A stretch of DNA of 64,000 nucleotides, taken from contig CALJYM010000033.1 in the NCBI GenBank assembly GCA_937984005.1, positions 2,288 to 66,287 of the forward strand, in the 5' to 3' direction. Shown here one piece after another: positions 5,638-29,074 of this stretch. The stretch is from an uncultured Collinsella sp. Lineage in GTDB: Bacteria > Actinomycetota > Coriobacteriia > Coriobacteriales > Coriobacteriaceae. The notes beneath the pieces are model-generated. The model was given only the letters and a program-made list of their open reading frames with translations. It had not been told where the DNA came from and did no database searches. The first letter of the stretch is position 1. Every line of letters starts with the position of its first letter. A program made the position numbers and the translations under genes.

Positions 5638-5671
5638 GGGGCCGGTGGGGCATTTTTGCCCCACCGGCCCC
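5638..5671. terminator. Strong GC hairpin (GGGGCCGGTGGGGCA-TTTT-TGCCCCACCGGCCCC) immediately downstream of the ech operon; likely terminator
   Basis: Perfect 15-bp stem with a 4-nt loop located 10 bp past the stop of the 5682..6023 gene; there is no clear U-tract (I-shaped). Confidence 0.55.
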
Positions 5672-5681
5672 TATTCCAGCG

Positions 5682-6023: not shown

Positions 6024-6030
6024 GCCGCGC

Positions 6031-7119: not shown

Positions 7120-7124
7120 GGGCC

Positions 7125-8392: not shown

Positions 8393-8404
8393 GGATGCCG
8401 CCTC

Positions 8405-12256: not shown

Positions 12257-13726
12257 CTACTTCGCGAGTCGATACCGTTGTCGCGGGCTGCGCGGAGGCT
12301 CCATCGCCTCAATCTTGCCCGCACCAATCAAGCCTTTTATGTGGTTGGAAACGGCGCTCCTGCTCAAACCCGAAGCGTCGGTGAGCTCCTTGGTCGAGGC
12401 CGAAGAATGTGTTGCCAGGTAATCCAAGATTGCCTCGTCCACATGCCCCACAGACGTCACCTGTTCCGCCCGCATTATCTTTCGCTTATCGAACGTCAAC
12501 GAAAAAGAAACTGTCGAGTTCTTTGGTTCGGGCGGCAACATGTTTGCCCGCTCGAGCTGCTCACCTATCTCCTGATAACCAGTGCCGCGATTTTCGACCA
12601 CGTAGCCACCGTCTGGGTACGGCGTGGTCTCGAGGATATTTGAAAGGAACTGGTTTCTGGATGACGAAACCCCAGAAACTCCCAGCGAATCGATCGTTAC
12701 GTCGCCGTACAGCCCGCCGGGATTGAGAATCTCGACGCGGTCGATATACAAGTTGACCTGCACTTGTGAGCCGCGCGCGGCGGAAGAGTAGTCGCGGTGC
12801 ATGAGCGCGTTCGCCACCGCCTCGCGCAGCGCCACGGGCGGATAATCGGGCACATCTTTCCGGAACGCGCCCTCGATAACCGCTGCGTTTCGGGTGTTTC
12901 TCGCAACGGCGGCAAGCACGTCCTCAATCATGAAAGGGATCGGACCCAAAATGGTCTGAGAATCCACAAAACGCTTGTTATCACTTACTCGCTGCGTTTT
13001 TGTGGTCCCGGGGTACGCCGTAAAGGTCACATTGAGACGTGGGAAGAACTTTTGCGGAAACCGTCCCATCGCGACAATTGCAGCAAGCGTCGGCACGATT
13101 GCGTCGTCCACCCTTTTGGTCACATGCAGGTCAAGGAGAATCTCATCGTCGCTTCTGGTGCCCAAAAGCCTAGGGTGTAGCTCGCGCTGGCGTTTTATAA
13201 ACCCTTGCAAAAGATCGGCGTCAAGGTCATCGAGCGTGGCACCTTCGACCGGCTCGTCGTCGTATGTAGGCTGAACATGCTCCTCCATAAAGCGATCGAT
13301 TTCGTAGGGAGTCATGCGCCGGTCGCCGTCGCCCGTACGGATAAAGGACGAATCGTACATTCCGCGTGCCGCAATATAGCAGGGTTTATCGCGTGGATGC
13401 ATCTCATTGATGCGCGCGCAAAGCACCAGTTTTTCCTCAAAGGGAATCACTTGGATATCCGGCCTCACAACGGGCGTCAGCTTTTCACATGCAGAAGAGA
13501 GGGCGTCTTGCATCTTGCGGGCATCAAAACCCTCGACGGGCATAAACCCGTTCTTTTCGGAAATGCCGAGGATGATAAAGCCGCCCTGCGCGTTGGAAAA
13601 TGCCGAAAGCGTCTCGACGATGCTTTTGGGGAGCGCGCCCTTGGCTTCTTTTACTTCGTACTGCTGGGTGTCGTTTCCTATTGCCCGCAGATGATGGATA
13701 ACCTGCGCCAACCACTCCTCATTCAT
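12257..13726 (-). CDS. ATP-binding putative transcriptional regulator with AlbA_2 (divergent AAA, Schlafen-like) N-terminal domain, HATPase_c_4 domain and C-terminal HTH
   Basis: Motifs LSAFSNAQGGFIILGISEKNG (AlbA_2), REAVANALMHRDYS...ILNPGGL (HATPase_c_4) and a C-terminal HTH (STKELTDASGLSRSAVSNHIKGL). The start is moved to the MNEEWLAQ methionine (13726) because the 10 upstream codons of ORF 12257..13756 lie inside repeat copy B. Confidence 0.7.
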   Translation of the reverse strand: MNEEWLAQVIHHLRAIGNDTQQYEVKEAKGALPKSIVETLSAFSNAQGGFIILGISEKNGFMPVEGFDARKMQDALSSACEKLTPVVRPDIQVIPFEEKLVLCARINEMHPRDKPCYIAARGMYDSSFIRTGDGDRRMTPYEIDRFMEEHVQPTYDDEPVEGATLDDLDADLLQGFIKRQRELHPRLLGTRSDDEILLDLHVTKRVDDAIVPTLAAIVAMGRFPQKFFPRLNVTFTAYPGTTKTQRVSDNKRFVDSQTILGPIPFMIEDVLAAVARNTRNAAVIEGAFRKDVPDYPPVALREAVANALMHRDYSSAARGSQVQVNLYIDRVEILNPGGLYGDVTIDSLGVSGVSSSRNQFLSNILETTPYPDGGYVVENRGTGYQEIGEQLERANMLPPEPKNSTVSFSLTFDKRKIMRAEQVTSVGHVDEAILDYLATHSSASTKELTDASGLSRSAVSNHIKGLIGAGKIEAMEPPRSPRQRYRLAK

Positions 13727-13740
13727 GCCGAACCTCCCAA

Positions 13741-13840
13741 CTTTCCAACTTTCCACCTAACTTACCAGCTTTCCACTTAACTTTCCAGCTTTCCACCTTG
13801 AGTGGTAAGTTAAGTGGAAAGCTGGAAAGTTGGTGGAGAG
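13741..13840. repeat. Palindromic CTTTCC/GGAAAG-rich element, copy B, directly upstream of the AlbA_2 gene and in the same orientation as copy A
   Basis: The 70-bp core aactttccacttaactttccagctttccacctt[g/a]agtggtaagtta[a/c]gtggaaagctggaaag is near-identical to copy A. Confidence 0.7.
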
Positions 13841-13869: not shown

Positions 13870-13900
13870 AAAAAGGGCGGCAACCGGGTGGTTGCCGCCC
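13870..13900 (-). terminator. Rho-independent terminator of the giant surface-protein gene (GGGCGGCAACC-loop-GGTTGCCGCCC, followed by a T-tract on the minus strand)
   Basis: Perfect 11-bp GC stem; on the minus strand it is followed by TTTTTCTTGTT and lies 10 bp after the stop at 13910. Confidence 0.8.
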
Positions 13901-13909
13901 CTCGCGTAG

Positions 13910-16900
13910 CTAGTTGGTTTTCGTCTCGTGCCGAATGCCCCCGGTGTTGATGCGCGCTAGCGTGTACGTCACGTAGTCGGAGTGCGAATAGCCATCAAGG
14001 TTGCTAACGTTGACCGGTGTGTCGTCGACAACGTTGCCGGTCATAATATTGGCCGTAAGCACCAAGCGGTAGTTTGCGTAAGTTTGGTTCTCACCCTCAA
14101 CATTCGTATTCACTTTAACGCGGAAGGCATGCTTAAAGGCAAGGCTGTTGCCGTCGCGCGTGAGGAACGCGCCGTTGGTCTTGGTGTCGGTGAACACATA
14201 GCTGTTGCCGTCGGCGGATGCCGCACCCGTGCCTAGGTAATCGCTGCCGAGCACCGTAATGTAGTTCGAGATATCGCCGACCGGAGCATAGCCGCCATTA
14301 TCTTGCCGCTGCTCCAGGATTAGCGTGTAGGTCACCGTGCTTGCGGCGTCGATCTTAGCCTCGGCGCCCGTGAGCTTGCTCAGGTCGTAGGTACCCACCA
14401 GAGCGATCTCGCCGTCAGCGGACTTGAGGTCATCGATGCTGATGCCCAACTGGGATTTCTTAGACGCCTCGAGCGCGATGGTCGATGAGCCCACATCCAT
14501 ACGGTAGTAGCCGGCGCCGCCATCGTTGTATGCCGAGTTGCTACTGGTGCTGAGCGTGTCAGCATGCGTGGAAAGGTACGCGCGGTAGTTGGGTTTGGTG
14601 TAGCGGTCGGTGCCGCTGTTCTGCGAGGCCACGATACCCGCCTGGCAGGCAGGCTCCGTCATGGTGAGCGCGGCCCTCATGGTAACGGTGAAGGCGTTGA
14701 CATGGTTCTTGGCGATCTCGCGCAGGCCCGACATGTCGATGGGATTACCCTCAGCATCGGCAAGCACCAGTGACATGTCGCCACCGTTCGCAGTCCAACT
14801 AAGGCCCGACACCACTGGGGTCTCCTTCGTGCCGGCCAGATTCCAACCCGACCCGCCCCAGGTGTAGTAGTTATCACCCACCTTAACGTAGAACTCATAC
14901 GTGCCCTGCGTGCCCGTGGGGTATCCTACCGAGCCCGCGATGACGCCATCGTGATAGGTGACAAGCGACGAATCGAGCTGATAATACAGCGCGTCAGAGC
15001 TCGTGTATTGCTGGCTCGAGTCAAACGTCACGGTGTCGCTCACGTTCATGGAAAGCGAATAGGTGGCTTCCTTGAGCTCCATCCGGTTGATGCTGTCCCT
15101 GTTGTCGACGAGGTTACGCTTGTTGTCAACGAGGCTGTGCGTGTAGTTTGATGCCACGCTGTAGGTCGAGGGCGTATTCTGGTGCCCATCCTCGGCAGCC
15201 TTGCCGTCGGCTGCTTTCTTGCCTCGCAGCAGGTAGTTGATGTGCTCGTTGAGGCTCGTGTCCACCGTGGTGGCGGTGTAGCCGTTGACGCCCGCGGACC
15301 CCGCCGGCGTGCGCACCACCAAGTAGAAGTTTTCGCTCTTGGGCTCTTCCTTATCAACGGAGAGGGTATAGAACGTGCCCGTCGCGTCGGAAGAAGTGCG
15401 CGCGCGGTAGTACGCGCCATCGACCTTGGCGCCAGCCATCTTCGCGAGTTCGGCCTGGCTCTTGTCCTTGACCTCGTCATCGGCGAGCTTGACCCAAGCG
15501 CCGTCCTTGTCCTCCTTGGCCTCATCGGCCTTCACGCCCACGATTTCGCTCAGCCACGGTTCGGTGTAGTAAGCCTTGTTGCCAGCGTCCACAAACTCGG
15601 TGAGCTTGACTGACGTCGCGCCACCCGTGCCCACCGTGTAGTGATATTCGCGGCTGTTGTTGGCCGTGTCCACGAGTGTGAGCTGTGTACCCTCGGGCAG
15701 CGTGGCACCGAAGGTAATGCTCTTGTTGAGCGGACCCATAGAGCCGCCGGCTTCGAGCAGCGTGTTCCAGCCGTAATCGACCGGCTTGCCCCGAGCGCTG
15801 CCATAGGTCCAGGTAAGGTAGCCGGTCATGGTGTCGCCGCTGCTCACAAGTACGTGCTTGTCGTATTTTGTCGCATAGTCGGCAGCCTTGAAGTTCGCAC
15901 CTTCGGAGTAGGTGGCGGTAAAGTCGATCTCGAGCATGCGCTTGACGATGATGGGTACCTGTACACGGTAGCTCTGGCCGGCCTCGCTAAAGGTGACCGT
16001 AAGCAGCGTGAAGCGCCCCTGCTCATTGTCCCAGTCGGTGCTCGCGCGGAATGCCATAGAGCTCGTGCCATTGTTGAGCACCTTGAGCGTGGGCGCTTGC
16101 GAGGCGGCTACGTCCTTGACGAAGGTGCCGTTATCGGCGAGCGAGAAGACCTCGGCGGTGGCGGTCACATGCGCGGTGCTGCCGTTGAGGCGGCGGGCAT
16201 CGGAGAAGCCGCCATTGGTCACGATGTTCAGGTAGCTCTCCACCGTCGTGGTATCGTTGCCCGGAATCACGAGCACGGGGAAGTCAGTTTTGGCCTTCTT
16301 GCCCGAAGTAATGTTGTTAGCGTTATAGGTGCTACGCGAGCTGTCCGCGCTATAGGTGCTCGTGTTTTGGTATGCGCCGGCATCATTGATGCCGGCGATG
16401 TTGGTGTAGGTGTAGCGGCCGGGAACGCGGGCACCCGCTTGGCTTTGGATGGTCGTCGCGGTGTCAATGGCGGCGCCGTCGCCAAACAGGTAGCGGTCGG
16501 TGGTGTCGCCGTCGGAGGCACGCACCGCCAGCGTGCTCACGGGCCTCGTGGTCACGTACGGACTCGTTGCCGTGGTAGCAGTATCGCCTGCGCCGTAAAG
16601 CGTTTTGTTCTCGTTGGGCGCGGCAGCCGTGCCGTTGTAGTCGCCGAAGGCAATATAAGTTTTCTCGTTAACAGCAGCCGTATTCGTATTGGTCGTGTAA
16701 ACCATCGGCGGCAGGTCGCTCGTGGTCTTGCCACTACCGGGCTTTACTTCCACGCCCGCTGCGGAAAGGCTGTACTTACCATCCCCCGTGTCAACCTCGC
16801 CCAAGAGTACGCCCTGGGTTTTGCCCGCATTGTAGCTATTGCTGTCCATGAGCACGTTTAACAGATGGAACTGGCCGCGCCCGTCGCCCATAATGCCGCC

Positions 16901-19900
16901 GTTGGACCTTTCGCTAAACGTGGTGTTGGATACCTTTGTGTTGGTAACGTCGATGACGACGGATCCGCTGTTACTCGCGTTATTCGCGCCCAGCAGACCG
17001 CCGCTCCAGTTACCCTTAATCGTAGCGTTCTCGATCGCGATGTTGTTGCAGGCTATATTCACATTGCTGAAGAAGTAGCCGATAAGCCCGCCCGAGCATT
17101 TGCCGGTGCCGGCGATGCTGACATTCTTGACACTGCAGTCGTCGAACCAGTACTTGTTGGGGCTACCGCTACTCGTAACCTCACCAATCAGGCCGCCCGC
17201 ATTGTAGATGCTATTGTTCGTTCCGGCCTTATCGCCGATGACGGCGTTCTCGGTGCCGTTTCCGCCATCAATGCGCACGTTGCTCATAGAAATAACGCCG
17301 CCACGGGCGCGTCCGACCACGCCGCCGGCGCCCATATGGTCATCGGAGTTCGACCCGGTGGCTAGCACGTTTACCCCAGAGATGACCGCCGTGCACGACG
17401 ACTGGGCCGCTGTGGTGGTGCCGATGTTGGTGTTGACCGAGATATCGCTTCTTTCGACATAGCCGAGCACGCCGCCCACGTAGGGCACTGTCCCTGTGGC
17501 AGTTATGGTCGAGTTTTTGCCAACGGTCCTTTCGCTCACCCCTGTGCCTGCGGTTGTCCACACACCGCACGCCGAGGCGACCGTACCCACATAGCCACCG
17601 ACATTCTTCTCGCCCGTGACGTTAAGGCCAGTGTATGAGCAGTCATAGAGATACGCGGGGCCCCACCCGTCCCCGAACTCGACCATATAGGTTCTGTCTT
17701 CGCTCGTAGTTCGTCTGGCGCGGCCCGAGCTGCCAAGAAGCCCTCCTACGCTCTTTGCGCCCGACACGGTGCAGTTCTTCATCTGCACGTTGCGGTAGAT
17801 GCCGCACGTGCCGTCGTCGTAGTTGGCCGTTGCACCCGCCAAAAGGCCGGCACCGGTAAGGTCGTTCGGCGCCTCTCCTGGTTTGGCTTCGCCGTTGGTG
17901 TCGATATAGGTGAGCGCTACGTTGCAGTTGCTAAAGGTGAGGTCTTTGACCTGCGCGCCGTCGTTCGCGGTGACGCTCTGCCCCACATTGGTGGAGGTGA
18001 ACATCACGGTGCTGAATAGACCACCCACGCCCGAGACCTTATAGTCGTCGTCGGCGTATTCGACGACGCCGTAGACGGTGCCTTCGGTACCCACCGTGAT
18101 GGTGGCGCCGTTACCGTCGATCGTGGCTACGTGCGGCGTAATACGGTCGCGGTCGGTGCCCGGCTGGTTCGAATTGCAGGCATTGGAATAGTAGCGGCCG
18201 TTTAGGCCCACGTACCCCGTGCCGTAGTCGGTCATATCGTAGGTGTCGCCCTGCTTGAACTCCAAGCTCATGCCGATCGATTTCGACGCGCACACATAGC
18301 CCGTTTGGTAGTCGGCAGCGTAGGACGCCACCAGGTAGGGCGAATTTACATCGTCATCATGGTCGAGCGGGCCGTGCCACCCCTGCTTGCCGGGGGCCTT
18401 CTGGTCGTCGTTTTTGGCGATTTCGAAATCGCCAGCAGCACTCTCAGGCTTGCCCACATTTGCGTAGTTAGCATTCCGTACCTTGCCATATTCCTTGTTG
18501 CCAAACAGGTAGCCGCATATCGCCGGGTCTTGCGAATCGCTGCCCCAGTAAGCCTTGGAACCGCGGAACACGCCATTATTGGAGTAGTTGGTATGTGCCG
18601 CGCCAGCACCCGCACCCGAGCTGATGATGGCCGAGAGCACCAAAAGGCCCTGGGCGTTTTTCACCATGGTCACAGGAGCCTCGGCGTTAGTGCCGAGGTA
18701 CTTGTTGTCGGTGCCCGTGGTGGTGACACAGGGGGTTCCTTTTTTTGTGAGCTCGTTAATCTGGTAGTTAGCGTTACCGTTTTCAACCTTACAGCCCTCG
18801 CTAAAGGCATAGCCATCAATCACGCGACCGACGTAGGGATTGTTGTAGAGATCAAAGTTGCCCTTTCCCAGACCACGAGATTTGTCACCAGTTCCAGCAC
18901 GCCAGGAAGATTTTCCGCTTTTGTCCATATTGCGGAAAATCACGCCGCCACCCGCAATGGCACCGACGTAGCCACCAATGGGAACAAGATGCGGCTTGTC
19001 GCCACCGCCCGTGACGGTAAATCCCGTTGTAGGGTTTTCGGCCGTCGTCCCATTAACGACCACGCCATCGATAATGTTATCGCCACCAAGGATGCAGCCG
19101 ACAACGCCACCGAAAAACGCCGTCGGAACGCCGTCGGCATCCTTGGCAGAATAAGTAATAGTCGCCGACGCGTTCACATAGCGAATATTCAGATCGCGCA
19201 CCACGCTGCCGTAACTATAGGGAATAAGGCCGCGAAGCGAACCCTCGTTATTCTCTATCTTGATGGTTGCGTTTTTATTATCACTGCCAAAGTTGCCAAC
19301 GATGACGCCCCTAAACGGGTTGGCCCTATTTCCAAAACCGCCAAACGATGCGCCGTCGAGAGTAATCGTATTGCCCTCAGTAGGCTCGATGCTGTAATAC
19401 GCGCTCTGCATATAGCGGTGCATGGTTTCGTCGCTCAGCGTCTGCGGGGAATTGGTCGACGCGTCTCCGGTCTTCTTCTCCCATTTATTATCGGTACCGT
19501 TCGCCTGCTTGTAGACGTACGTAACCTCATTGTCGGTCGAGTGATCGCTGCTGCGGCGAGTGCAGAGCCTACCCTGGTCGGCAACAATGGTGACCTCCCA
19601 GCCGTCAAGCGCCGTCATGTTATTAATGTAGTTGGCAATGGCATTCATCTCCGCCGCGTTTGTGACGGAATAAGGATCGCCGTAGGTACCACATCCCATT
19701 ACCAGCTTTGGAATGCGCTGGTTGACTTTAATTTCGTGATACTGGACGCCATCCTCGGCGGCTTTTCCCTTGTAAACATAAGGAAGGTAGTCACCGAACC
19801 AAGGCCTGACGTCACCGTCCTTCTTACCATCAACCGTCACATAGCCGCTCACGGCACCATACGTCGCTTCGTCGTAATACCAAAGCTGCTTGCCCGGGTA

Positions 19901-22900
19901 CTCCGTACTCCCATCAATCTCGGATCCGTAGGTCACCTTGCCCGCATCGCCATCGGCCTTAGTAAAGGTGTAGTCCGCAGAGCCCGTGCTCGTGCTTCCG
20001 TAGCCAAAACTCTCCAGCAGGCTCGCATGGGTGAAGATCGTATTGTTCTCTTGGCTGGGCAAGCTGATTTGCTCAAACTTCGCCGTCACCTGATCGGCCT
20101 CACTGCCTACACCAAGCTTTCCGAACAGCGACGTAGCCGCCTTGGTGCCACTCGTGTACCCAGTAGTCTTGATATTCTTCGCGTTCAGGCTCACGTACTT
20201 CTGCATCTCGTTGATGAGCAGAGGCATATAGGCGTTAGCGTCCGTGGCGCTGTTGGCGCCGTCGACAATCAGATTGTTGAGTGTAAGATCATCAATTGAG
20301 ATCTTTCTAATCTTGGTGCCATTGCCGTCGCTGGACCCATACACGTAGCGGCACACGAGCGCGCCCGATGAGCTTCCGCCCGCGCCAATAGCGTCAGTAG
20401 AGCTCTTTCCGTCATTGATAACGGACCCAACGGTACCACCCAAAGTGACGTTGCTTACTGTGAGATCGCCGTCTGCCACCGTTTGAAAAAGACCGCAGTG
20501 CATGTTCTCGTGCTGGGTGGCATCGGAGTTTAGCTTGTTGCCATTCTGCTCGGCCTTGATCTTGGAGTAGTAGAAGGTGATGGCCGCATTATTAACCGTC
20601 ACCTCTCCGATCGGTTGAGTGGGATAGTAGCTGTAGCCGGCCAAATCGATTGTGCCCGTTATGGTTATGGAATCATCGAGCCCTGTCGTACCATCGGGAA
20701 CGATTGTCGAACGAATACCGGCGGGAGCATAGCAGAAAGCAGACCATAAGAGCAGCTTGTCCGCTGTATCGATTTGACTGCCACTAAAGCCGCCTTCACA
20801 ATTCTTAGAGGCTATGTCGAGGTTGTAGAAGTAGCGGGTATTGCCGTTCGTATTCTGGCTTCGACCGAAAGACGAGCGATTATGGTAGCTGTTGTCTTTT
20901 GTGGAATCGCCGTCCATGTCCAGCTTGTTTTTCTGTGTGTGTAGCGAAACGACCGTGTTCCAGTCGGCGTCCATGAGCTTGCTGCCGTTGTTTGGTTTTA
21001 CACCGCTGCCAACCCATTCATCGAAGGACGTTACGCCCGACGCAACGATGGCCCCCTCGCCGGTGGGCACCCTATAGGCGGTATCCCAATAAACCCTGTC
21101 CTCCAAGTACAGGCCTAGGTAGCTCTCGACGCCATATGTCGTCTTATCATCCACCTTGCAGCCGCGGCAAACTAGAACGCCGAGCGTCTGAGCGGCGCCT
21201 GCATTAATCTTTGTGCCCGAGAGATCGATGGCGTAGTTGTTGATAATCCAGTGACCGCTGGCTGCGTATACAAGGCCGCCAAGCTCCTTGGAATCATCCA
21301 CAGTCGCGATTATAGAAGCGTTGGTCGTTTTCAAAGCATAGGAGTTTTCACTCTTGTTAATGTTGTCATCTCCGATAGTTACGACCGCGTTGCCCCAGCT
21401 ATAACCCAAGAGACCGCCCACGCCATTGAGCTTATCGCCGTTCTTTCCGACTCCCATCTTGAACGAGTTGAACGAAAGGCCCGTAATGTTAACGTCCTTT
21501 TTGGCCGAGTTGGCTATTGCCCCATCAGCCCCATAGGTGCTCTGTGCGATGCAGCCGATAAGACCGCCGACCTGGGCAATCTTGCCGCTGGTGCAATTGC
21601 CGGTTTCGATTGATCCGGCGACTTCGAGGCCCGCAACATTGAATGACGAGCCATAATCGCCCACATAACCAATGGCGCCGCCAATGCGACTATTGCCGTT
21701 AAGCGTTTTAGTTGCAGCGATGGTCGCTTGAGCCCTGCTGTTATCCTTAAACGCAACCGTAGAAGCCGCCGACACGCTGCCCGCAATACCACCAATGTTC
21801 ACTTCGTTGCCGAACGTATCATCACACGCGATATTCGTTTTGCACGTTACGCCCGACAATGGCAGGTTGCCGACGATGGTACCTGCAAGCGACCCGGCAT
21901 CGATAGCCGAACCGTTATCGAACTTCATGGAACCAGCGATTGTGACGTTGGAGATGGTTGCGCCGTTGACGGCCGCGAACAAGCCCAAGCGGCCGTGGCG
22001 GTAGATTTTGCCGTTGCCGTTGCTCGTGTCATTGCCGTCGAGCACAGCTTCACCACGCTTGCCGTACGGCTCGCCGACGGCAAGGTTGATTGTGCCGTTG
22101 CCATTTGTGCCGCCGCCGTTCAACGTTCCCGAGAAAACTTGCGAGCCGTCTGCACGATCCTGCGTGAAACCCGTCAGGCCCGTGCCCTTGAGATCAATAG
22201 TGCCGTTCACCGTAATGGTCGAGGACTGCAAGATGTTCGGGTTGTTTTCAGAAACGCCCTCGACCATGGAGTAGTAGCCGTTGGTTTGCCAGGTGATTGC
22301 AAGTTTGGCGAAATCCTCAACAGAGGTTAGGGTGTAGGCACCGTTAGCTGCCGTCAGCGAATCCGGCAAGGTCAACTTATGAGTGTCCACATCAAGCTTA
22401 ATGAAGTCGCCGCCCAGACGAATAACTTCGCCGTAGGTCGCGATGTCGTCCGTCTTCGAGGCAGTATTGCTACGTTTGAAGGTCCAGCCCGCTGCACCCT
22501 TGTCAGCGTCAGAGCCATCGCCGACAGCAAAAATCAGCGCGTTGTGGTTCTCGTATACGAGCTGGCCCGTCGTGCTGTTTTCGGCAAAACTTGCGCCCGA
22601 CAGATCCGTGATGCCGCTGAATTTGATTACAGCATTCCACGCGGAGCCTGCAATTCCCGCGGCACGGTTGCTTTGCGCCTTACCGATAGGATTGTCGCTT
22701 GTAAGTTTGAAATCTCGCACGTCAAGGACATTGCGCGCGTCGACAACGCCCACGGCACCACCGAACTTTCCGGCGTCCGTTCGCGCCGAAGCATCTCCCT
22801 TGCACGCAACCGTCACGCCGTCGAGCACAACGGCGACAGGCTGCGAATTGGAGTCCGCGCTATCGCCAACATAGCCAACAACACCGCCCGTATCGGACAG

Positions 22901-24586
22901 CTTGCCCGCAAGTTCAAACTCAATTGAGCACGTTTTCTTATCCGCATCCTTTTGGACCACAAAGGCGCGCAGCGACTCATCGACGCCTTTTGCCGTCGCA
23001 AACACCTTGCCGACAAGGCCGCCGTAGCTGCCGTTGAAGCTAACTTCTTCCGGTAAGGTGAACTTGCTCTTATACGTTCCGCCTTGCACCACGATGTCGC
23101 CATTAGAAATATCGGCCACACCAAAAAGGGCGCCGGCGCGTTGCGATGCACCAAGCGTCACAAGCTTGCCCAGGTCGAACATATTGGGCTTAACGATAAA
23201 TCCTTGCGCAAAGCTCACGTCGCCGATGACGCCACCGGAGCAAGCGCTGTCTTTATCGCCGACGTTGCACGCCGGCTTAACCGTTACGCCATCAGCGATG
23301 TTGAGCGTGAGGTTGGTGGCCTTACCGATAAGACCGCCCGCCGCGTTTTTACCTGCGACGCTCAGCGCCGAGACATCGATGCCAGTTGGTAGGGCGACGG
23401 TGGCACCCTCCCGCGCCTCGCCGATAAGACCCCCCGCGTTGGCATCAGCGGCTGTCGCGTTGATAGTGGGGGTACCGTCGAGTTTGTCCGGCAGGGCGAG
23501 GCCCGCAAGCGTAAGCGATGCTCCTTCGGCAAGGGTGTTCACAAGCAAGCCCATGTTGCCTGTGCTCGATTGCATATCGATCGCCAGGGGGCTGTTCGCG
23601 CTTGTCACGTAGGTTGCGTTAAGCGTGAGCGCGCCCGTGACCTCGCCCACAAGTGGCGAGGCGAGCTTGCAGATGTCCTTTTCGGTATCGCTCTTGGGCG
23701 TGCCCACGGTTACGGTGGCAGCAAGCGTCTTGTCCGCGCCCGTGACCTTTGCGGCCACGATGGGCTGGGCATCGGTACCCTTCCAGGTGAGCTTTACGGT
23801 GCTGTTGGCGTCGCTGAGCTCGATGTTGTTGAAGAGCGTCTTGTTGACGGTCAGGGTCCTGTCGCCGAGGTTGAGCGCGCCTTTGAAAGGGTAGGCATCG
23901 CTGCCGAAGCCCTGGAACGTGAGGCTACCCAGGCCGTCCACGATCTCCGCGCCGCACACGTCGAAGTCGATGCCGGTCGAGCCACCTTTGGAGATGTTCG
24001 CGTTCTGGTAGATGGCGGGATCGGTGTTGGAGATGGCGATAAGGTCGGCGTTGGACTCAAAGGTAATGGCCGTGACGGCGCCCAAGTCGTCAGTGATGAC
24101 ATTGCCGTCACCCAACGCGTGCCTGAGATCCTCGACAGTAGCGATGGTGGGGGCGGTGTTTGCCTGATCAGCAGCATCCGCGTCCGCGTCATCCGCTTGT
24201 TCTCCGTCAGCAGCACCCTCATCGGCAGCCGCATCGTCTTGGGACGCGTCGCCCTCCGTTGGGGTATCGCCGTTAGTGGTTCCATCGGTCGTGGAGTCCT
24301 GTGATTCGCCAGCGTTGGTAGAACCGTCGCCGCCCTCGGTAGCGCCAGCGTCGGCGCCCGGAGTCGTTGCGACATCATCAGATGTAGCCTGGTCAGCATC
24401 TTGCAGCGCGGTGGCCACAGCATCCTGTACGGAGCGCGCCGTGTTGCCCGCGGCGCGCGCGGCGGAGACGGATGCATCCATGACGGCGTCGAGCTCTTGC
24501 GCGAACACCTCCGTGGAGGGCGCAAGCGCCTGGAAAATCATGATCGCAGTCAGGCATGCGGTTGTTATGCGCTTTGCCGTTCTCAT
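13910..24586 (-). CDS. Giant (3558 aa) secreted surface protein: signal peptide, acidic Asp/Thr/Ala-rich spacer, then dozens of GLUG-type (GG[LIV][ILV]G) beta-helix-like repeats; no LPXTG at the C-terminus
   Basis: Single uninterrupted ORF. The N-terminus MRTAKRITTACLTAIMIFQALAPSTEVFA is a signal peptide. Motifs recurring throughout include AGGLIGEA, GGLIGKAT, GGVIGDV, GGLVGKV, GGVVGYV and GGLIGEVTS. The C-terminus ...ARINTGGIRHETKTN has no sortase motif. Confidence 0.85.
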   Translation of the reverse strand: MRTAKRITTACLTAIMIFQALAPSTEVFAQELDAVMDASVSAARAAGNTARSVQDAVATALQDADQATSDDVATTPGADAGATEGGDGSTNAGESQDSTTDGTTNGDTPTEGDASQDDAAADEGAADGEQADDADADAADQANTAPTIATVEDLRHALGDGNVITDDLGAVTAITFESNADLIAISNTDPAIYQNANISKGGSTGIDFDVCGAEIVDGLGSLTFQGFGSDAYPFKGALNLGDRTLTVNKTLFNNIELSDANSTVKLTWKGTDAQPIVAAKVTGADKTLAATVTVGTPKSDTEKDICKLASPLVGEVTGALTLNATYVTSANSPLAIDMQSSTGNMGLLVNTLAEGASLTLAGLALPDKLDGTPTINATAADANAGGLIGEAREGATVALPTGIDVSALSVAGKNAAGGLIGKATNLTLNIADGVTVKPACNVGDKDSACSGGVIGDVSFAQGFIVKPNMFDLGKLVTLGASQRAGALFGVADISNGDIVVQGGTYKSKFTLPEEVSFNGSYGGLVGKVFATAKGVDESLRAFVVQKDADKKTCSIEFELAGKLSDTGGVVGYVGDSADSNSQPVAVVLDGVTVACKGDASARTDAGKFGGAVGVVDARNVLDVRDFKLTSDNPIGKAQSNRAAGIAGSAWNAVIKFSGITDLSGASFAENSTTGQLVYENHNALIFAVGDGSDADKGAAGWTFKRSNTASKTDDIATYGEVIRLGGDFIKLDVDTHKLTLPDSLTAANGAYTLTSVEDFAKLAITWQTNGYYSMVEGVSENNPNILQSSTITVNGTIDLKGTGLTGFTQDRADGSQVFSGTLNGGGTNGNGTINLAVGEPYGKRGEAVLDGNDTSNGNGKIYRHGRLGLFAAVNGATISNVTIAGSMKFDNGSAIDAGSLAGTIVGNLPLSGVTCKTNIACDDTFGNEVNIGGIAGSVSAASTVAFKDNSRAQATIAATKTLNGNSRIGGAIGYVGDYGSSFNVAGLEVAGSIETGNCTSGKIAQVGGLIGCIAQSTYGADGAIANSAKKDVNITGLSFNSFKMGVGKNGDKLNGVGGLLGYSWGNAVVTIGDDNINKSENSYALKTTNASIIATVDDSKELGGLVYAASGHWIINNYAIDLSGTKINAGAAQTLGVLVCRGCKVDDKTTYGVESYLGLYLEDRVYWDTAYRVPTGEGAIVASGVTSFDEWVGSGVKPNNGSKLMDADWNTVVSLHTQKNKLDMDGDSTKDNSYHNRSSFGRSQNTNGNTRYFYNLDIASKNCEGGFSGSQIDTADKLLLWSAFCYAPAGIRSTIVPDGTTGLDDSITITGTIDLAGYSYYPTQPIGEVTVNNAAITFYYSKIKAEQNGNKLNSDATQHENMHCGLFQTVADGDLTVSNVTLGGTVGSVINDGKSSTDAIGAGGSSSGALVCRYVYGSSDGNGTKIRKISIDDLTLNNLIVDGANSATDANAYMPLLINEMQKYVSLNAKNIKTTGYTSGTKAATSLFGKLGVGSEADQVTAKFEQISLPSQENNTIFTHASLLESFGYGSTSTGSADYTFTKADGDAGKVTYGSEIDGSTEYPGKQLWYYDEATYGAVSGYVTVDGKKDGDVRPWFGDYLPYVYKGKAAEDGVQYHEIKVNQRIPKLVMGCGTYGDPYSVTNAAEMNAIANYINNMTALDGWEVTIVADQGRLCTRRSSDHSTDNEVTYVYKQANGTDNKWEKKTGDASTNSPQTLSDETMHRYMQSAYYSIEPTEGNTITLDGASFGGFGNRANPFRGVIVGNFGSDNKNATIKIENNEGSLRGLIPYSYGSVVRDLNIRYVNASATITYSAKDADGVPTAFFGGVVGCILGGDNIIDGVVVNGTTAENPTTGFTVTGGGDKPHLVPIGGYVGAIAGGGVIFRNMDKSGKSSWRAGTGDKSRGLGKGNFDLYNNPYVGRVIDGYAFSEGCKVENGNANYQINELTKKGTPCVTTTGTDNKYLGTNAEAPVTMVKNAQGLLVLSAIISSGAGAGAAHTNYSNNGVFRGSKAYWGSDSQDPAICGYLFGNKEYGKVRNANYANVGKPESAAGDFEIAKNDDQKAPGKQGWHGPLDHDDDVNSPYLVASYAADYQTGYVCASKSIGMSLEFKQGDTYDMTDYGTGYVGLNGRYYSNACNSNQPGTDRDRITPHVATIDGNGATITVGTEGTVYGVVEYADDDYKVSGVGGLFSTVMFTSTNVGQSVTANDGAQVKDLTFSNCNVALTYIDTNGEAKPGEAPNDLTGAGLLAGATANYDDGTCGIYRNVQMKNCTVSGAKSVGGLLGSSGRARRTTSEDRTYMVEFGDGWGPAYLYDCSYTGLNVTGEKNVGGYVGTVASACGVWTTAGTGVSERTVGKNSTITATGTVPYVGGVLGYVERSDISVNTNIGTTTAAQSSCTAVISGVNVLATGSNSDDHMGAGGVVGRARGGVISMSNVRIDGGNGTENAVIGDKAGTNNSIYNAGGLIGEVTSSGSPNKYWFDDCSVKNVSIAGTGKCSGGLIGYFFSNVNIACNNIAIENATIKGNWSGGLLGANNASNSGSVVIDVTNTKVSNTTFSERSNGGIMGDGRGQFHLLNVLMDSNSYNAGKTQGVLLGEVDTGDGKYSLSAAGVEVKPGSGKTTSDLPPMVYTTNTNTAAVNEKTYIAFGDYNGTAAAPNENKTLYGAGDTATTATSPYVTTRPVSTLAVRASDGDTTDRYLFGDGAAIDTATTIQSQAGARVPGRYTYTNIAGINDAGAYQNTSTYSADSSRSTYNANNITSGKKAKTDFPVLVIPGNDTTTVESYLNIVTNGGFSDARRLNGSTAHVTATAEVFSLADNGTFVKDVAASQAPTLKVLNNGTSSMAFRASTDWDNEQGRFTLLTVTFSEAGQSYRVQVPIIVKRMLEIDFTATYSEGANFKAADYATKYDKHVLVSSGDTMTGYLTWTYGSARGKPVDYGWNTLLEAGGSMGPLNKSITFGATLPEGTQLTLVDTANNSREYHYTVGTGGATSVKLTEFVDAGNKAYYTEPWLSEIVGVKADEAKEDKDGAWVKLADDEVKDKSQAELAKMAGAKVDGAYYRARTSSDATGTFYTLSVDKEEPKSENFYLVVRTPAGSAGVNGYTATTVDTSLNEHINYLLRGKKAADGKAAEDGHQNTPSTYSVASNYTHSLVDNKRNLVDNRDSINRMELKEATYSLSMNVSDTVTFDSSQQYTSSDALYYQLDSSLVTYHDGVIAGSVGYPTGTQGTYEFYVKVGDNYYTWGGSGWNLAGTKETPVVSGLSWTANGGDMSLVLADAEGNPIDMSGLREIAKNHVNAFTVTMRAALTMTEPACQAGIVASQNSGTDRYTKPNYRAYLSTHADTLSTSSNSAYNDGGAGYYRMDVGSSTIALEASKKSQLGISIDDLKSADGEIALVGTYDLSKLTGAEAKIDAASTVTYTLILEQRQDNGGYAPVGDISNYITVLGSDYLGTGAASADGNSYVFTDTKTNGAFLTRDGNSLAFKHAFRVKVNTNVEGENQTYANYRLVLTANIMTGNVVDDTPVNVSNLDGYSHSDYVTYTLARINTGGIRHETKTN

Positions 24587-24650
24587 CTGGTCCTACCTCG
24601 TTCTATCTCATGCCCCGTGCGGGGTCTCAAAATCACAGATTGCGGTTGGC

Positions 24651-25628
24651 CTACGCAGCCCTGCACGTAACACCGATGTCATCCAAGCTGCCGGGCGCGG
24701 TATCCGTCGAACGGTAAAAGGTAATAATCTCCGACCCGGGATCCATGGTGAACGTAACCGACCTTCCATCAAAGGTCGCGTCGGAATGATTCGTCGCCAA
24801 AAATGGGTCAAGCTCAACCTTGTCGCCCCATGTAAGCTTGATTTTTGTTGGCGCGCCCGTAACGGTCGCGCGATAGTTGTAAGCGTCGAAAGCGTTGATA
24901 TCCGAGTTCTTGTCGACCCACTCGCCCGAAACGCCCGAAGCCGTTACCTCTGCACGCTCGGAAGGCGCAATCTTGGCGGCGAGCCATTTAAGATTGGTGC
25001 CGGGGCTATTGGAGCCGACCTGGGCCTTAACGGTGAAGGATGCTTTGTTGAGGTCCGCCTTGGAAAATGTAACCTTATAGGTATACATGGTTGCCCTGTT
25101 GGCAGGGAAGGAAAGGTCGACCGTGCCGCCCGCCGTCAGCATGGGCGAACCGCTTATGCTCCAAGCTTTCGTCGTTCCCGTCGCCTTCACGCTCAGCGTC
25201 GCGTTAACGTCCTTGTCGTTGACCTTGTTCTTGTCGCCCAGCAGATGGTTGTAAATGCGAAAGGTAAAAGAGCAGTTTTCCCCACTCGTGTCGGCGATGA
25301 CGCTTCGGACGGCAATACCCTCGTCATTCAGCGTCTCATTCGTGTAGCCCGTAAGCATGTCCGAGGCAAACAGCGCCTGTGACGTGCCCGAGACAGCGAC
25401 CGACTTAAGGAAGTCGCCCGCCAAAAAGGCCGTGTAAGTAAGGTGGGTACCCGCCACAATCGCGACGGCGCATAGCAGCACCGCAACCGCCCACAGGCGC
25501 TTGCGCATTTTGGAAACAGGGGCCGCCGACTCTACGCAGCAAGGCTCTGCCTTAGAATCATCCACCTGCGCAAAGTGCTTGCCAACAGGCCTCGCGATTT
25601 CATTTTGCTCTTTCTTGTCTTTTCGCAT
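24651..25628 (-). CDS. Bitopic membrane protein (N-in, single TM, ~260-aa extracytoplasmic beta-rich domain); third of three paralogous-architecture genes upstream of the giant protein
   Basis: Start chosen at MRKDKKEQNEIARP (25628); the Arg-rich 85-aa extension of ORF 24651..25883 is not coding-like. The TM segment is LWAVAVLLCAVAIVAGTHLTYTAFL. The post-TM segment AFLAGDF...ALFASDMLTG weakly resembles the TasA/camelysin N-terminal motif (AAFNDIKSKDATFASGTLDL). Confidence 0.6.
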   Translation of the reverse strand: MRKDKKEQNEIARPVGKHFAQVDDSKAEPCCVESAAPVSKMRKRLWAVAVLLCAVAIVAGTHLTYTAFLAGDFLKSVAVSGTSQALFASDMLTGYTNETLNDEGIAVRSVIADTSGENCSFTFRIYNHLLGDKNKVNDKDVNATLSVKATGTTKAWSISGSPMLTAGGTVDLSFPANRATMYTYKVTFSKADLNKASFTVKAQVGSNSPGTNLKWLAAKIAPSERAEVTASGVSGEWVDKNSDINAFDAYNYRATVTGAPTKIKLTWGDKVELDPFLATNHSDATFDGRSVTFTMDPGSEIITFYRSTDTAPGSLDDIGVTCRAA

Positions 25629-25651
25629 CTGGCGCCCCTCCCTTCTTGTTA

Positions 25652-26452
25652 TTAGTTGCCACTCGTGCCGCGAGCAATTAGATAAACCATGTCGGTCTCT
25701 TTGACGTTGGAGACCGTCTTTCCGTTTACGGTCACAACGCCCGGATTCCATGTGCACTCGATGATGAAGTTCGTGGCGGCGTTGGCTGTTTTGCCATTCC
25801 AGCCATCGAGCCCACTCCCTGCGAACTTGTGGTACCGATACAGCGGACGGGCGTTTTTCTGGACATTCACGTACGAGCCGCACGTCGGGTCGTTTGCCTC
25901 AAGCTCTTTAGCCAACGCACTTGTCCCGTCCGCGGAGTTGATAAAAGCAAACTCAATCGGGGTGCTGCTCTTCTTGCTCCATGAGTAGGTGCGGTTGAGC
26001 CCGTCGAGGCCGACCACAGTGCCGTTTTTATCGTTCGGATTATTGACCGTCACGTGATACACGTTGATTGTCAGCCCCGTGATATTCGTTGTGTTGGCAA
26101 TCTGCAGCTCAAACGCTTGACCGCCGGCAGCGGGATCGCCATTGTCGCTCTGCACACAAAACGCGCGACGAACGGTCACGGTGCCGTCTATGTTTTTAAC
26201 ATCGCCCCGTGACTCGTCATACGAAATCTCGATGGGCTCGATGCTCGTCTGGTTGGGACCCATGATCTTAAGCTGCGCGGGCGTTTGGATCTTGCCCACC
26301 GTAGACAGACTTTTGCTGCCCACAAACCACGAGAGCGACAAGCCGATGATAAGAGCGATTGCCGCCAGCAATATCAGGACCGCAAGGGCCTGTGCGCGGT
26401 GGTTTTCTATCCAATTGCGGGCATCGCCGAGGCGCGTTTGCATGGTGCTCAT
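25652..26452 (-). CDS. Bitopic membrane protein (20-aa cytoplasmic N-terminus, single TM, ~220-aa extracytoplasmic domain); second of three
   Basis: TM segment ALAVLILLAAIALIIGLSLSWFV, then GSKSLSTVGKIQTPAQLKIMG.... Its start overlaps the stop of the upstream gene by 4 nt (ATGA), indicating translational coupling. Confidence 0.65.
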   Translation of the reverse strand: MSTMQTRLGDARNWIENHRAQALAVLILLAAIALIIGLSLSWFVGSKSLSTVGKIQTPAQLKIMGPNQTSIEPIEISYDESRGDVKNIDGTVTVRRAFCVQSDNGDPAAGGQAFELQIANTTNITGLTINVYHVTVNNPNDKNGTVVGLDGLNRTYSWSKKSSTPIEFAFINSADGTSALAKELEANDPTCGSYVNVQKNARPLYRYHKFAGSGLDGWNGKTANAATNFIIECTWNPGVVTVNGKTVSNVKETDMVYLIARGTSGN

Positions 26453-27486
26453 GAGCTCACGCCCTCCTGAGCGCTAATTCTAAGTTGGATGTATTTGACC
26501 TTATTGCCGATCTGCTCGTCGGCATTGTTGTACAGCGCCGAGCAGATGGCGGTGTCGCCGAAGGATATGTCAGCCGAAACCGCAGGAGCGTTGGCGACAC
26601 TCGTGCCGTTTGCCGCGCCATAGAAGTAGTTCGCTTTATGCGCGTTCATATCTGCCTGCAGAGCGCCGTAGTCAGACTTTGCGTCGCCCGCCGCCGCAAA
26701 CAGGTTCTTGTAGTAATTCGTGTTGCCGGTAAGGACGAAGTTTTGGAAGTACTCCGGCCACACCCAGTACAGGCTGATGGTGACGGGTTTGTTCGTTGGC
26801 TTGTTCACATCGCCGTTTTCGCAAAATTCGCACTTGCGAATCTCGATCTTGCTATCAACCACGCGGCCCGAGTAATACCCGTTCTGGTCGCAGCTCGTAA
26901 AGAACAGCAAGTGGCCTTTGATCAAGCCAAGGAGCGCCTCCGCCTCGGGCGCCAGCGTTCCCCCGTCCCCAACAACGCCAACAGTGTTCGTGACCTTAAG
27001 CAAGCGCGACAGACTGATCGTGACCCCGTCCAGGTCACTCACCAGCGGCTTCACCGTAAATGTAATCTTGCCGCGAGCACCCGGGTACAGAGAGCCCGCG
27101 GTCTCGTTGTTGAGGTTGGAGCCGAGCGTTACCGTCATGGCGTCGGTCGTATCCAGGCCATCGATGGCATACTTTTCCTCGGGCGTGCGCTCGGAGCGCT
27201 CGTAATAGCCCACGTGCGCGCCGGACTCACCCTCGCCCGCGGCGGTCAGCGTGTACCGATCCGCCTTCGCCCCGATCGTACCCCCCGTGGCGCTCACTCG
27301 GTTATTCGCGGCAAACCAGGCCAGACACGCAAAGATGGCAACGATGGCGGCCAACACAAACAGACCGCTCACCAGGAAATCCTTCCAGAAATCCTTGAGG
27401 GTCCGCACGTGCTCGTCGGCAGCTTGGCGGTACTCGGCCGCCGTCTTGTGCTGCTGGAGCTCGCTATGTCGGTCCATGCCACTCAT
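26449..27486 (-). CDS. Bitopic membrane protein (37-aa cytoplasmic N-terminus, single TM, ~285-aa extracytoplasmic domain); first gene of the operon
   Basis: TM segment FLVSGLFVLAAIVAIFACLAWF, then AANNRVSATGGTIGAKADRYTLTAAG...; a GGAGGG RBS precedes the downstream coupled start. Confidence 0.65.
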   Translation of the reverse strand: MSGMDRHSELQQHKTAAEYRQAADEHVRTLKDFWKDFLVSGLFVLAAIVAIFACLAWFAANNRVSATGGTIGAKADRYTLTAAGEGESGAHVGYYERSERTPEEKYAIDGLDTTDAMTVTLGSNLNNETAGSLYPGARGKITFTVKPLVSDLDGVTISLSRLLKVTNTVGVVGDGGTLAPEAEALLGLIKGHLLFFTSCDQNGYYSGRVVDSKIEIRKCEFCENGDVNKPTNKPVTISLYWVWPEYFQNFVLTGNTNYYKNLFAAAGDAKSDYGALQADMNAHKANYFYGAANGTSVANAPAVSADISFGDTAICSALYNNADEQIGNKVKYIQLRISAQEGVSS

Positions 27487-27665
27487 CGCTTACATTTGCC
27501 CTGCTTGCGGGCGTGCCATCCTTTCCGCTCGGTCGCGTTTATCCGTTGTTCGCAGGTAGAGAATTCAGGCAGAATACAACACCGTACGATAAGGTAAAAG
27601 AATAGCATTGACCTGCGGTTCGCTCCACAACGCAAGCCTTAATGATGTCTTAAAAGTCAAACCCT

Positions 27666-27730
27666 TGGTGCAAGTGGTCAGGTTACTTCGCGCCAACATG
27701 GTGCAAACAAACCTGACCCCCTTGCACCAA
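27666..27730. promoter_or_regulatory. 20-bp inverted repeat (TTGGTGCAAGTGGTCAGGTT ... AACCTGACCCCCTTGCACCAA) with a 24-nt loop in the promoter region of the bitopic/giant-protein operon
   Basis: Arms at 27666-27685 and 27710-27730 are reverse complements (19/20), about 180 bp upstream of the 27486 start. Confidence 0.4.
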
Positions 27731-27769
27731 TCCGTAGCGCCGGGCAGCGGACACACGGCGTGCCGCCCC

Positions 27770-29074
27770 TTAACACCCCAACGCGCGAACGGGTATCACG
27801 TAGATACCGTCCTCGACCTCGCGGGCGTACTCACCCACCCCCACAATCACGGCCATAAACTCCGGTTCGCGTGTGCGTGAACGAGGATTTCCACAGACCT
27901 TCTTGCGAACGCGCTTGAGGCTCTCGACGCCGGCGTTCGCTTTATCTTCACTCACCTTAATCTCAAAGGCGGCCCACCGTCCGTCGGCTAGCTGCACGAT
28001 AGCATCGCACTCAAGACCCGAATCGTCGCGATAATAGCGCACGGGCGTGCTATCCAGCAGGTCGAGCGAACGTGCGTAGACCGAAAGGTCGCGTATGACC
28101 AAATTCTCAAACACCAGACCAAATGTCTGCCAGTCGGCAAGCAGCGCCTGCGAGGACATACCTAGCAAGGCGCAAGCAAGGCTCGGATCTGCCAGATAGC
28201 GCTTGGGCTTGACGGTAAAGCGCCGTTTGTCGCGCGCGGCGGGAACCCAACCGGGAACCTCCTCGAGAATGAACATGCCTTTGAGGGCATCCAGGTACCT
28301 GCGCACCTTGGTCTCATCGGCAAACGCTGCGGGTTCCTCCTCGGCACCGAACATATCCATAAGAATCGTTTTATACGTGGTTGCCTGTCCCAGATTGCGC
28401 GCGATCGATGCGGAGACTCGACGAGCAATATCGGGGTCGAGACCGACCGCCGGGAAGCTGCTCGAAAACGTGGTGTTGAGATATTCGTGGGCGATGAGCT
28501 GGGCGTCAGCCGAAACCATATCGATCGCCTCGGGCCAGCCGCCGCGGCAAGCGGCTTCGACAAGCCCCGGCGTATCGCCATTGCACCGGCAGGGCTCAAA
28601 ACGATGCTCAAACAAGCCCGCCAGGCTCACCTTGCCGTTGGACTCACCTGTCTCGGCAAGCGTCATGGGGTGCATGCGGACGCGGCCGATGCGGCCGGCT
28701 CCACTATGCGCGGGCGCCTCCGCCTTTGAGCCAAACGCAGGCGTGGCGGAACCCGTGAGGATATAGGCGCCGCGCGTACCCCGGGTGCGGTCGACCTCGT
28801 GTCTAACGTAGTCCCAAATCTGGGGAACGCGCTGCCACTCATCGATAATATGCGGACGGTCTCCCAGCAACATCATCGCCGGGTCGGCACGCGCGAGGTC
28901 GAGATTCTCGTCGACATACGAGGCGGACGCCCCGTGCTCGAGCGCGGCCCACGTCTTGCCGCACCACTTGGTGCCCGCAATCTCGACCGCTCCAAAGACA
29001 CGAAGGTAGCGCTCGATTTGCGCATCCACGATACGTGGGATGTATCCGTCCCGATATAGCCTCTCGCCTGCCAT
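27770..29074 (-). CDS. AAA+ ATPase of the AAA_14 / DUF4143 family (orphan ATP-binding protein)
   Basis: Walker A motif GTKWCGKT; the C-terminal region LVFENLVIRDL...RYYRDDSGLECDAIVQLADGRWAAFEIKVSE matches the DUF4143 pattern; 434 aa. Confidence 0.75.
   Translation of the reverse strand: MAGERLYRDGYIPRIVDAQIERYLRVFGAVEIAGTKWCGKTWAALEHGASASYVDENLDLARADPAMMLLGDRPHIIDEWQRVPQIWDYVRHEVDRTRGTRGAYILTGSATPAFGSKAEAPAHSGAGRIGRVRMHPMTLAETGESNGKVSLAGLFEHRFEPCRCNGDTPGLVEAACRGGWPEAIDMVSADAQLIAHEYLNTTFSSSFPAVGLDPDIARRVSASIARNLGQATTYKTILMDMFGAEEEPAAFADETKVRRYLDALKGMFILEEVPGWVPAARDKRRFTVKPKRYLADPSLACALLGMSSQALLADWQTFGLVFENLVIRDLSVYARSLDLLDSTPVRYYRDDSGLECDAIVQLADGRWAAFEIKVSEDKANAGVESLKRVRKKVCGNPRSRTREPEFMAVIVGVGEYAREVEDGIYVIPVRALGC

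Follow-up and report, generated by a model that had tools for sequence, protein, structure and literature searches.

The WxL/Csc clusters of Enterococcus and Lactobacillus combine small and large WxL proteins with the interacting protein WxLIP, in which DUF916 and DUF3324 are followed by a transmembrane (TM) segment (PMC10599100). TasA/TapA/SipW of Bacillus subtilis and SipW-BsaABC of Clostridium perfringens (PMC7395162) are matrix-fibre operons. Here, we report a four-gene cassette from an uncultured Collinsella sp., found in a 64,000-nucleotide stretch of contig CALJYM010000033.1 (positions 2,288 to 66,287; this whole stretch is called the window, and coordinates refer to it). Three genes for small proteins, P1, P2 and P3, precede a gene for a very large secreted protein, which we call the giant. 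The order P1-P2-P3-giant is kept both in Coriobacteriia (Actinomycetota) and in low-GC gut Bacillota. We propose, with a probability of roughly 45%, that P1-P3 are three paralogous, membrane-anchored, immunoglobulin (Ig)-like proteins that keep the giant, which has no anchor of its own, at the cell surface or assemble it there. A preliminary description of this DNA, made from its sequence alone, had supposed that no described system has this composition, and our literature searches likewise found no description of an equivalent cassette.

The linkage first noticed in the window extends across the Coriobacteriia and into a second phylum. The genome loci, 80 at the species level, come from Collinsella, Eggerthella, Ellagibacter, other Eggerthellaceae and an 'Atopobium' metagenome-assembled genome (MAG); on every contig of sufficient length, P1 is followed by P2, P3 and the giant gene, with identities down to 41-66%. 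One of these loci (L005), from a MAG of Collinsella aerofaciens (NAKE01000001.1), has a P1 that is 100% identical to that of the window, which places the window in this species. A scan of metagenome contigs, for which the query was a remote subgroup of the P1 family (about 26% identity to P1), yielded 78 human-gut loci, and the 20 examined have 37-44% G+C. In these low-GC loci the P1-like gene is followed by P2 in 58 of 60 cases, by P3 in 52 of 52 and by the giant gene in 43 of 47; the exceptions that were inspected are fragmented or low-coverage contigs. The encoded proteins measure 330-430 amino acids (aa) for the P1-like, about 240 aa for the P2-like and about 320 aa for the P3-like member, followed by an open reading frame (ORF) of more than 2,700 aa. 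Profile searches of the Bacillota loci recovered P2 with E values down to 1e-42, P3 with values down to 1e-38 and a giant that is colinear over residues 60-2800, and one profile search (alignment A1) returned close Collinsella sequences only. The named Bacillota hosts are Ruminococcus hominis, with genes for 337, 239, 310 and 3,651 aa, and a Gemmiger sp., and all of the Bacillota loci derive from human-gut metagenomes or gut isolates. The four-gene order thus recurs in about 150 independent loci of two phyla, which disfavours a chance arrangement, and a functional link among the four genes is supported.

In the window, the ORF check places all four genes on the minus strand within a span of 13.6 kb (Table 1), as had been described. 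The ATGA shared by P1 and P2, also described before, is the sole overlap within the four genes; P2 and P3 are separated by 23 nucleotides (nt), with GGGAGGGG as the ribosome-binding site of P3, and P3 and the giant gene by 64 nt. The terminator after the giant gene, a stem of 14 bp (9 of them G-C pairs) with TTCTTGTT downstream of it, is the top-ranked terminator-like site of the region. With their common direction, the ATGA overlap, the short gaps and a single strong terminator after the giant, the four genes are one operon, and stop/start overlaps are also kept in diverged loci. The promoter of the operon presumably lies in the intergenic region upstream of P1, in which a sigma-70 consensus scan found no site.

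The three small proteins share a topology. Exactly one hydrophobic 19-residue window above a Kyte-Doolittle value of 1.6 is present in each of them, at residues 33-62 in P1, 17-49 in P2 and 41-70 in P3. The numbers of lysine and arginine residues on the N-terminal and C-terminal flanks are 3 and 2 in P1, 3 and 2 in P2, and 4 and 1 in P3, and this excess on the N-terminal flank fits an N-in orientation. The single N-terminal hydrophobic segment and the charge bias agree with the architecture given in the preliminary description, namely a cytoplasmic N-terminus, one TM helix and a beta-rich ectodomain. P1 consists of a conserved cytoplasmic N-terminal helix, a TM helix ending in a near-invariant AWF, and a beta-sandwich ectodomain with helical insertions. 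Clustering of its family gives 1,104 groups at 90% identity and, for E<=0.001, 431 at 50%; in all members examined, a polar tail of 20-70 aa at the N-terminus leads into a single TM helix and then the ectodomain, and the family motifs are AWF, PGxxGxLxFxVxP, GHILxF, YWVWP and YNxADExIG. P2 begins with the same N-terminal module as P1 (cytoplasmic tail, TM, SWF and first strand) and continues into a beta-rich ectodomain. The cytoplasmic tails of P1 and P2 are both 20-70 aa in length and conserved, with invariant positions Y19, A23, D24, H26, L30, K31, F33, W34 and K35 in P1 and W14, H18 and R19 in P2. A signal peptide destined for removal would not be expected to show such length and conservation, so the membrane anchors of P1 and P2 are probably retained. 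P3 has an N-terminal hydrophobic helix, the segment LTYTAF and two Ig-like beta-sandwich domains. Its start is ambiguous, as an internal Met (MRKRLWAV; gene 24651-25511) would give an ordinary signal-peptide-like N-terminus.

Pairwise BLASTP among P1, P2 and P3 finds similarity confined to the TM region. When the P1 and P2 families are aligned with hhalign, a common N-terminal module (cytoplasmic helix, TM, (A/S)WF, linker and first strand) is recovered with a probability of 94.7% and an E value of 5.9e-8; P1 and P3, compared as profiles, are less similar (137 columns, probability 61.8%, E 7.7e-5). Judging from these alignments, P1, P2 and P3 are probably distant paralogues. The AlphaFold2 model of P1 (85 sequences; pLDDT 86.5, pTM 0.76) shows residues 16-62 as one continuous helix, which a flexible linker joins to a beta-sandwich carrying helical insertions; in the AlphaFold model of P3 (pLDDT 81.3), a helix over residues 41-75 is followed by two Ig-like sandwiches. 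Structure searches with the models of the small proteins returned generic Ig-like or pilin-like matches only, and Foldseek with the P1 model gave no match at E<=1e-3.

The giant carries a Sec-type signal peptide (MRTAKRITTACLTAIMIFQALAPSTEVFA, followed by QE), beyond which it has no hydrophobic segment, and no LPXTG occurs anywhere in it. It can be divided into an acidic low-complexity N-terminal region, Gly-rich GGxxG segments at about 385-610, 930-1060 and 2280-2530, a highly conserved core at about 1500-2100 and a C-terminal region of about 850 aa. That the giant lacks an anchor had been noted before; the same now applies to 13 diverse homologues, since neither they nor the giant contain a recognized anchor domain or give a Pfam match, and the giant has no TM helix or cell-wall-binding domain. 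The giant is colinear with its Bacillota homologues over its full length. Residues 1500-2100 are the most conserved, at 45-55% identity, with invariants that include G-C-G-T-Y-x-x-P at 1631-1638 and GGDNIID at 1834-1840, and the C-terminal strands are conserved between phyla. The giant had also been described as made of GLUG-like repeats, and one part of this claim stands: 14 strict GG[LIV][ILV]G motifs are present, in three clusters. The repeats themselves do not, as the best Pfam Glug match in the giant (residues 414-425; E 4.1) is insignificant at 8.5 bits against a cut-off of 20.5, Glug matches none of the 14 diverse giant-family members, and a BLAST self-comparison found no internal repeats in the giant. 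A repeat-built giant was rejected owing to this lack of self-similarity. Its segments G-x-G-T-x-x-x-P-Y and F-x-G-x-F-x-G-x-x-H-T-I resemble GLUG-type beta-helix modules.

The giant gene contains the sole homopolymer of at least 7 bases in the operon, an A7 tract. Of 31 loci that share the allele, 24 have the in-frame sequence A7G2 at this site and 4 the likewise in-frame A8G1. The site is frameshifted in the other three assemblies (L001, A7G1; L007, A8G2; L060, A6G2), and in L007 the indel is the lone gap across 8,135 aligned nt. These frameshifts may represent slipped-strand phase variation of the giant or an assembly error. In L005, otherwise the MAG closest to the window, the giant gene has an extra 1-nt deletion (CATTGCC to CATTGC) at nt about 4952, which breaks the ORF near codon 1650; this is either a true pseudogene or an error of the MAG consensus.

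Searches of Pfam, NCBIfam, PHROGs, PADLOC and the PDB sequences gave no significant match for any of the four proteins, whether as single sequences, as profiles or through alignment members. These scans covered the giant in segments of 700-858 aa, together with 85 P1, 25 P3 and 14 giant-family homologues; for Pfam, the thresholds were E<=0.1 for P1, P2 and P3 and E<=0.01 for the 85 P1-family members. PDB matches such as the GLFG nucleoporin were spurious. As no significant match appeared in Pfam or NCBIfam, the small proteins are without significant homology to any known family, which leaves the preliminary description standing on this point.

The cassette occupies a fixed site and varies strongly there. 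Across 55 Collinsella loci in which the flanking bilirubin reductase (BilR) is at least 97% identical, identities for P1, P2, P3 and the giant's thirds lie between 42 and 100%. The alleles are mosaic: L006 is 99-100% identical in P1-P3 and 73% in the N-terminal third of the giant, and L054 is 84% identical in P1 and 100% in the giant. A fixed position combined with allelic hypervariability is what would be expected of an exposed surface structure under diversifying selection. The bilR gene itself (29309-31345, minus strand, 678 aa) lies upstream of the cassette, is 97-100% conserved across the Collinsella loci and marks the fixed chromosomal site; its product scores 1045.8 bits against the NCBIfam model 'bilirubin reductase, long form', for which the cut-off is 750.

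In the arrangement that we favour, the giant would be exported through Sec without an anchor of its own. P1, P2 and probably P3, as distant paralogues with an N-in/C-out membrane helix and an Ig-like or beta-sandwich ectodomain, would form a membrane-anchored hetero-oligomer, plausibly via beta-strand pairing of the conserved post-membrane segments. This hetero-oligomer would capture, hold and display the giant on single-membrane bacteria. Since the structure would be exposed and diversifying, adhesion or another surface interaction in the gut would be its most likely role. Three points weigh against this proposal. Recombination is fairly free among the alleles of P1-P3 and of the giant up to residue 2,400; their correlation (Spearman 0.45-0.71) is at the level of linkage, and no specific co-variation suggests a contact. 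The Bacillota P3 homologues have a short N-region only, starting MKLTDRPKWK-(hydrophobic)-GGSYAAYTSQAFQRG; with this short signal-peptide-like N-terminus and the motif GGSYAAYTSQ, they may be cleaved and released rather than anchored. Finally, the core of the giant at 1500-2100 could be an enzyme rather than an adhesin.

The post-membrane motifs of the small proteins (AWFxxN, SWF, LTYTAF and GGSYAAYTSQ), followed by a short linker and an alternating-hydrophobic strand, would also suit a fibre or pilus of the TasA type. P1-P3 would then be processed by a signal peptidase encoded elsewhere (SipW-type or housekeeping type I) and would polymerize by donor-strand exchange into a stalk or fibre, in the manner of TasA/TapA in Bacillus or BsaA in C. 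perfringens, with the giant at the tip or as cargo. We consider this unlikely, even though several observations point towards it. TIGR04088 recurs below its threshold in both families, in 2 of the 85 P1-family members (best E 0.0043) and 3 of the 25 P3-family members (E 0.41-0.6), and Foldseek ranks the TasA fibre 8aur first for P1 (E 6.6e-3, TM-score 0.20/0.28, probability 0.66). Some Bacillota loci also contain two extra P1-family paralogues, resembling sets of minor subunits, and the N-terminus of the Bacillota P3 resembles the TasA/camelysin signal peptide. UniRef names the R. hominis P3 homologue (P0545, WP_186865016.1; L168 10001-10933) 'SipW-cognate class signal peptide'; this name is based on a sub-threshold or differently thresholded TIGR04088 match, the protein scoring 10.3 bits. 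The TIGR04088 scores are 10-11 bits against a cut-off of 19, P1-P3 of the window itself give no TIGR04088 match, and no Peptidase_M73/TasA Pfam match exists in P1, P2, P3 or the 85 P1-family members. Moreover, TasA was not among the results when the PDB was searched with profiles of the P1, P2 and P3 families, even at a cut-off of E<=10. In agreement with the preliminary description, genes for a sortase or signal peptidase are missing from the roughly 10 kb on either side of the Collinsella cassette, and neither a peptidase nor a sortase gene was seen in four Bacillota contexts, R. hominis among them, over as much as 10 kb upstream; the tails of P1 and P2 described above also argue for retention rather than processing. 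The likeness to TasA and camelysin that had been suggested therefore persists in the weak TIGR04088 and Foldseek signals and is not borne out by a Peptidase_M73 domain or a nearby sipW. Membership of the TasA family is not established, and a TasA-like mode of assembly is possible.

It is somewhat less probable again that P1-P3 are a post-Sec maturation apparatus, that is, extracytoplasmic holdases or scaffolds that aid the folding and wall crossing of the giant and are absent from the final structure. Strict linkage and a position of small, translationally coupled genes upstream are usual for assembly factors, and the giant is long, Gly-rich and probably slow-folding. However, assembly factors are usually conserved, whereas P1-P3 diverge as fast as the giant beside a constant bilR, which suggests exposure, and the cassette has no ATPase, channel or peptidase. 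A role in signalling or regulation, in which P1-P3 would be anti-sigma-like proteins or sensors acting on the giant gene, is very improbable, as is a linkage to a mobile, defence or toxin island. The sub-threshold NCBIfam 'antisigma' matches, in 2 of the 85 P1 and 1 of the 25 P3 homologues, are at noise level (E 0.03-0.04); no sigma factor or regulator is conserved beside the cassette, and large, structured ectodomains contrast with cytoplasmic parts that consist of short helices only. An island would be in keeping with the AAA_14/DUF4143 (PDC-S01) and AlbA_2/HATPase_c_4 genes that flank the cassette in the window and with the transposases, Abi_2 and PDDEXK genes in Bacillota, but these flanking genes differ between taxa, whereas the cassette is constant. 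The four genes themselves lack toxin and immunity domains and have no PHROGs or PADLOC matches save a noise-level one for P3 (E 0.0097), so a phage, defence or toxin origin of the cassette was rejected.

Compared with these alternatives, anchoring or assembly of the giant by P1-P3 remains the reading that we prefer, and it could be taken further. The cassette might encode a distinct, undescribed Gram-positive surface organelle: a heterotrimeric, N-terminally anchored TasA/pilin-like pedestal, formed by strand exchange without a sortase or dedicated peptidase and bearing a 3,500-aa beta-solenoid protein with a possibly enzymatic core. Such an organelle would be phase- and antigen-variable and exchanged between gut Actinomycetota and Bacillota. 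We put this extended picture forward as speculation, and regard it as doubtful in its entirety.

Table 1. Features of the four-gene operon and its borders, in window coordinates.
Feature	Coordinates	Strand	Description
Upstream intergenic region	27487..27769	-	283 bp, from the AAA_14/DUF4143 gene to the P1 start; presumed promoter region
P1	26449..27486	-	345 aa
P2	25652..26452	-	266 aa; start overlaps the P1 stop (ATGA)
P3	24651..25628	-	325 aa, or 286 aa from an internal Met at 25511
Stem-loop	24613..24624	-	CCCC-GCAC-GGGG (coding strand); about 15 nt before the giant's GAGG ribosome-binding site
Giant	13910..24586	-	3,558 aa, Sec-secreted
A7 tract	18740..18746	-	Within the giant gene, codons about 1946-1949
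Intrinsic terminator	13872..13903	-	Directly after the giant stop codon

The gap between P3 and the giant gene contains the hairpin CCCCGTGCGGGG (Table 1). Among the 40 distinct upstream sequences taken from Coriobacteriia loci, of which a few were mis-anchored inside genes, 32 contain a hairpin of the form C3-5/N3-6/G3-5. The stems of these hairpins are kept and the loops vary, and in Coriobacteriia the position upstream of the invariant AGAACGAGGT ribosome-binding region is kept as well; in L072 this position is taken by another stem, GUCC-GUUAA-GGAC. The Bacillota loci lack the hairpin because their P3-giant gap is about 13-50 nt. An intrinsic terminator at this site was rejected, as the hairpin has no U-tract and its folding z-score of -0.86 is not significant. 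It had been suggested that the hairpin could tune the stoichiometry of the products: its presence and conserved position are confirmed, the tuning stays conjecture given the absent U-tract and the insignificant folding energy, and a 5' stabilizing or processing element is as plausible.

The neighbours of the cassette are unrelated to it, with the AAA_14/DUF4143 ATPase and bilirubin reductase upstream and the AlbA_2/HATPase_c_4 protein downstream. The ATPase gene (27770-29074, minus strand) matches the PADLOC candidate system PDC-S01 with an E value of 5.7e-54 and is missing from some Collinsella loci, among them L014, L032 and L042. The downstream gene (12257-13756, minus strand) encodes an AlbA_2/HATPase_c_4/HTH protein with weak PADLOC matches to pAgo and Aga (SIR2-PNTD). 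The genes that flank the cassette in the window look island-like. The upstream neighbours in Bacillota vary and include IS200 and DDE transposases, MatE and Abi_2, and PDDEXK genes also flank the cassette there. An ORF of 960 aa in the window (8405-11287, minus strand) joins Proton_antipo_M (NuoL or hydrogenase-4 subunit-like) and NADHdh (NuoH-like) in one polypeptide, an apparent fusion of two membrane subunits.

Several loci depart from the single four-gene unit. Tandem cassettes occur in the low-GC gut Bacillota loci L124, L147, L160 and L161 (about 1-9830), where a giant of more than 3,200 aa ends about 90-330 nt before the next P1. Five others of this group (L114, L130, L135, L136 and L142) have the two additional P1-family paralogues upstream of P1, of about 270 and 330 aa, with profile E values of 1e-12 to 1e-17. 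A contig titled 'Treponemataceae bacterium' (L070, CAVCKO010000036.1) carries a cassette that matches at the level of Collinsella, with P1 at 71% and the giant at about 52-58%; this probably reflects mis-binning of the contig, not a spirochaete copy of the cassette.

Collinsella aerofaciens and the cassette-bearing Bacillota are human-gut bacteria, and all four cassette families are without Pfam or NCBIfam annotation. The alleles differ by more than 50% of their amino acids between strains, a pattern typical of the targets of phages, host IgA and neighbouring cells. If P1-P3 do anchor or assemble the giant, they would provide a new route for the display of very large proteins without sortase, S-layer-homology or WxL modules, and the cassette would be a strain-typing and colonization-relevant locus for gut Coriobacteriia and Lachnospiraceae-like Bacillota.

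The comparison with described systems shows both shared and distinguishing features. Sortase-assembled pili differ from the cassette, which has no LPXTG, pilin motif or sortase and whose hydrophobic segments are N-terminal rather than C-terminal. GLUG (PF07581) proteins and the giant adhesins Ebh and Embp are, like the giant, very large, secreted and rich in GGxxG-type Gly-rich motifs. Nevertheless, the giant differs from GLUG proteins in that Pfam Glug is insignificant in it and its 13 homologues and in that it has no tandem repeats, and from Ebh in having no C-terminal TM or LPXTG and in being linked to three small genes. TasA/TapA/SipW of Bacillus subtilis and SipW-BsaABC of C. perfringens encode several small, beta-rich, secreted paralogues per operon, as is the case here, and their N-terminal motif of the aromatic-Ala-Phe type after the hydrophobic segment is similar. 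The cassette is distinguished from these operons by the absence of sipW and Peptidase_M73 and by the long, conserved tails of P1 and P2, and the TasA and Bsa operons, unlike the cassette, have no giant partner protein. The features that define the WxL clusters, a WxL domain on the secreted partners and a DUF916-DUF3324 protein with a C-terminal TM as the interacting protein, are likewise absent from the cassette. The cassette thus does not count as a member of either group: the WxL features, Peptidase_M73 and a nearby sipW were looked for and are missing, the TIGR04088 matches stay below threshold and the likeness to the TasA fold is weak. It is best viewed as a variant among the multi-protein surface complexes of Gram-positive bacteria; its closest analogue would be the WxL/WxLIP cluster by logic and, by motif, TasA/TapA/SipW and SipW-BsaABC.

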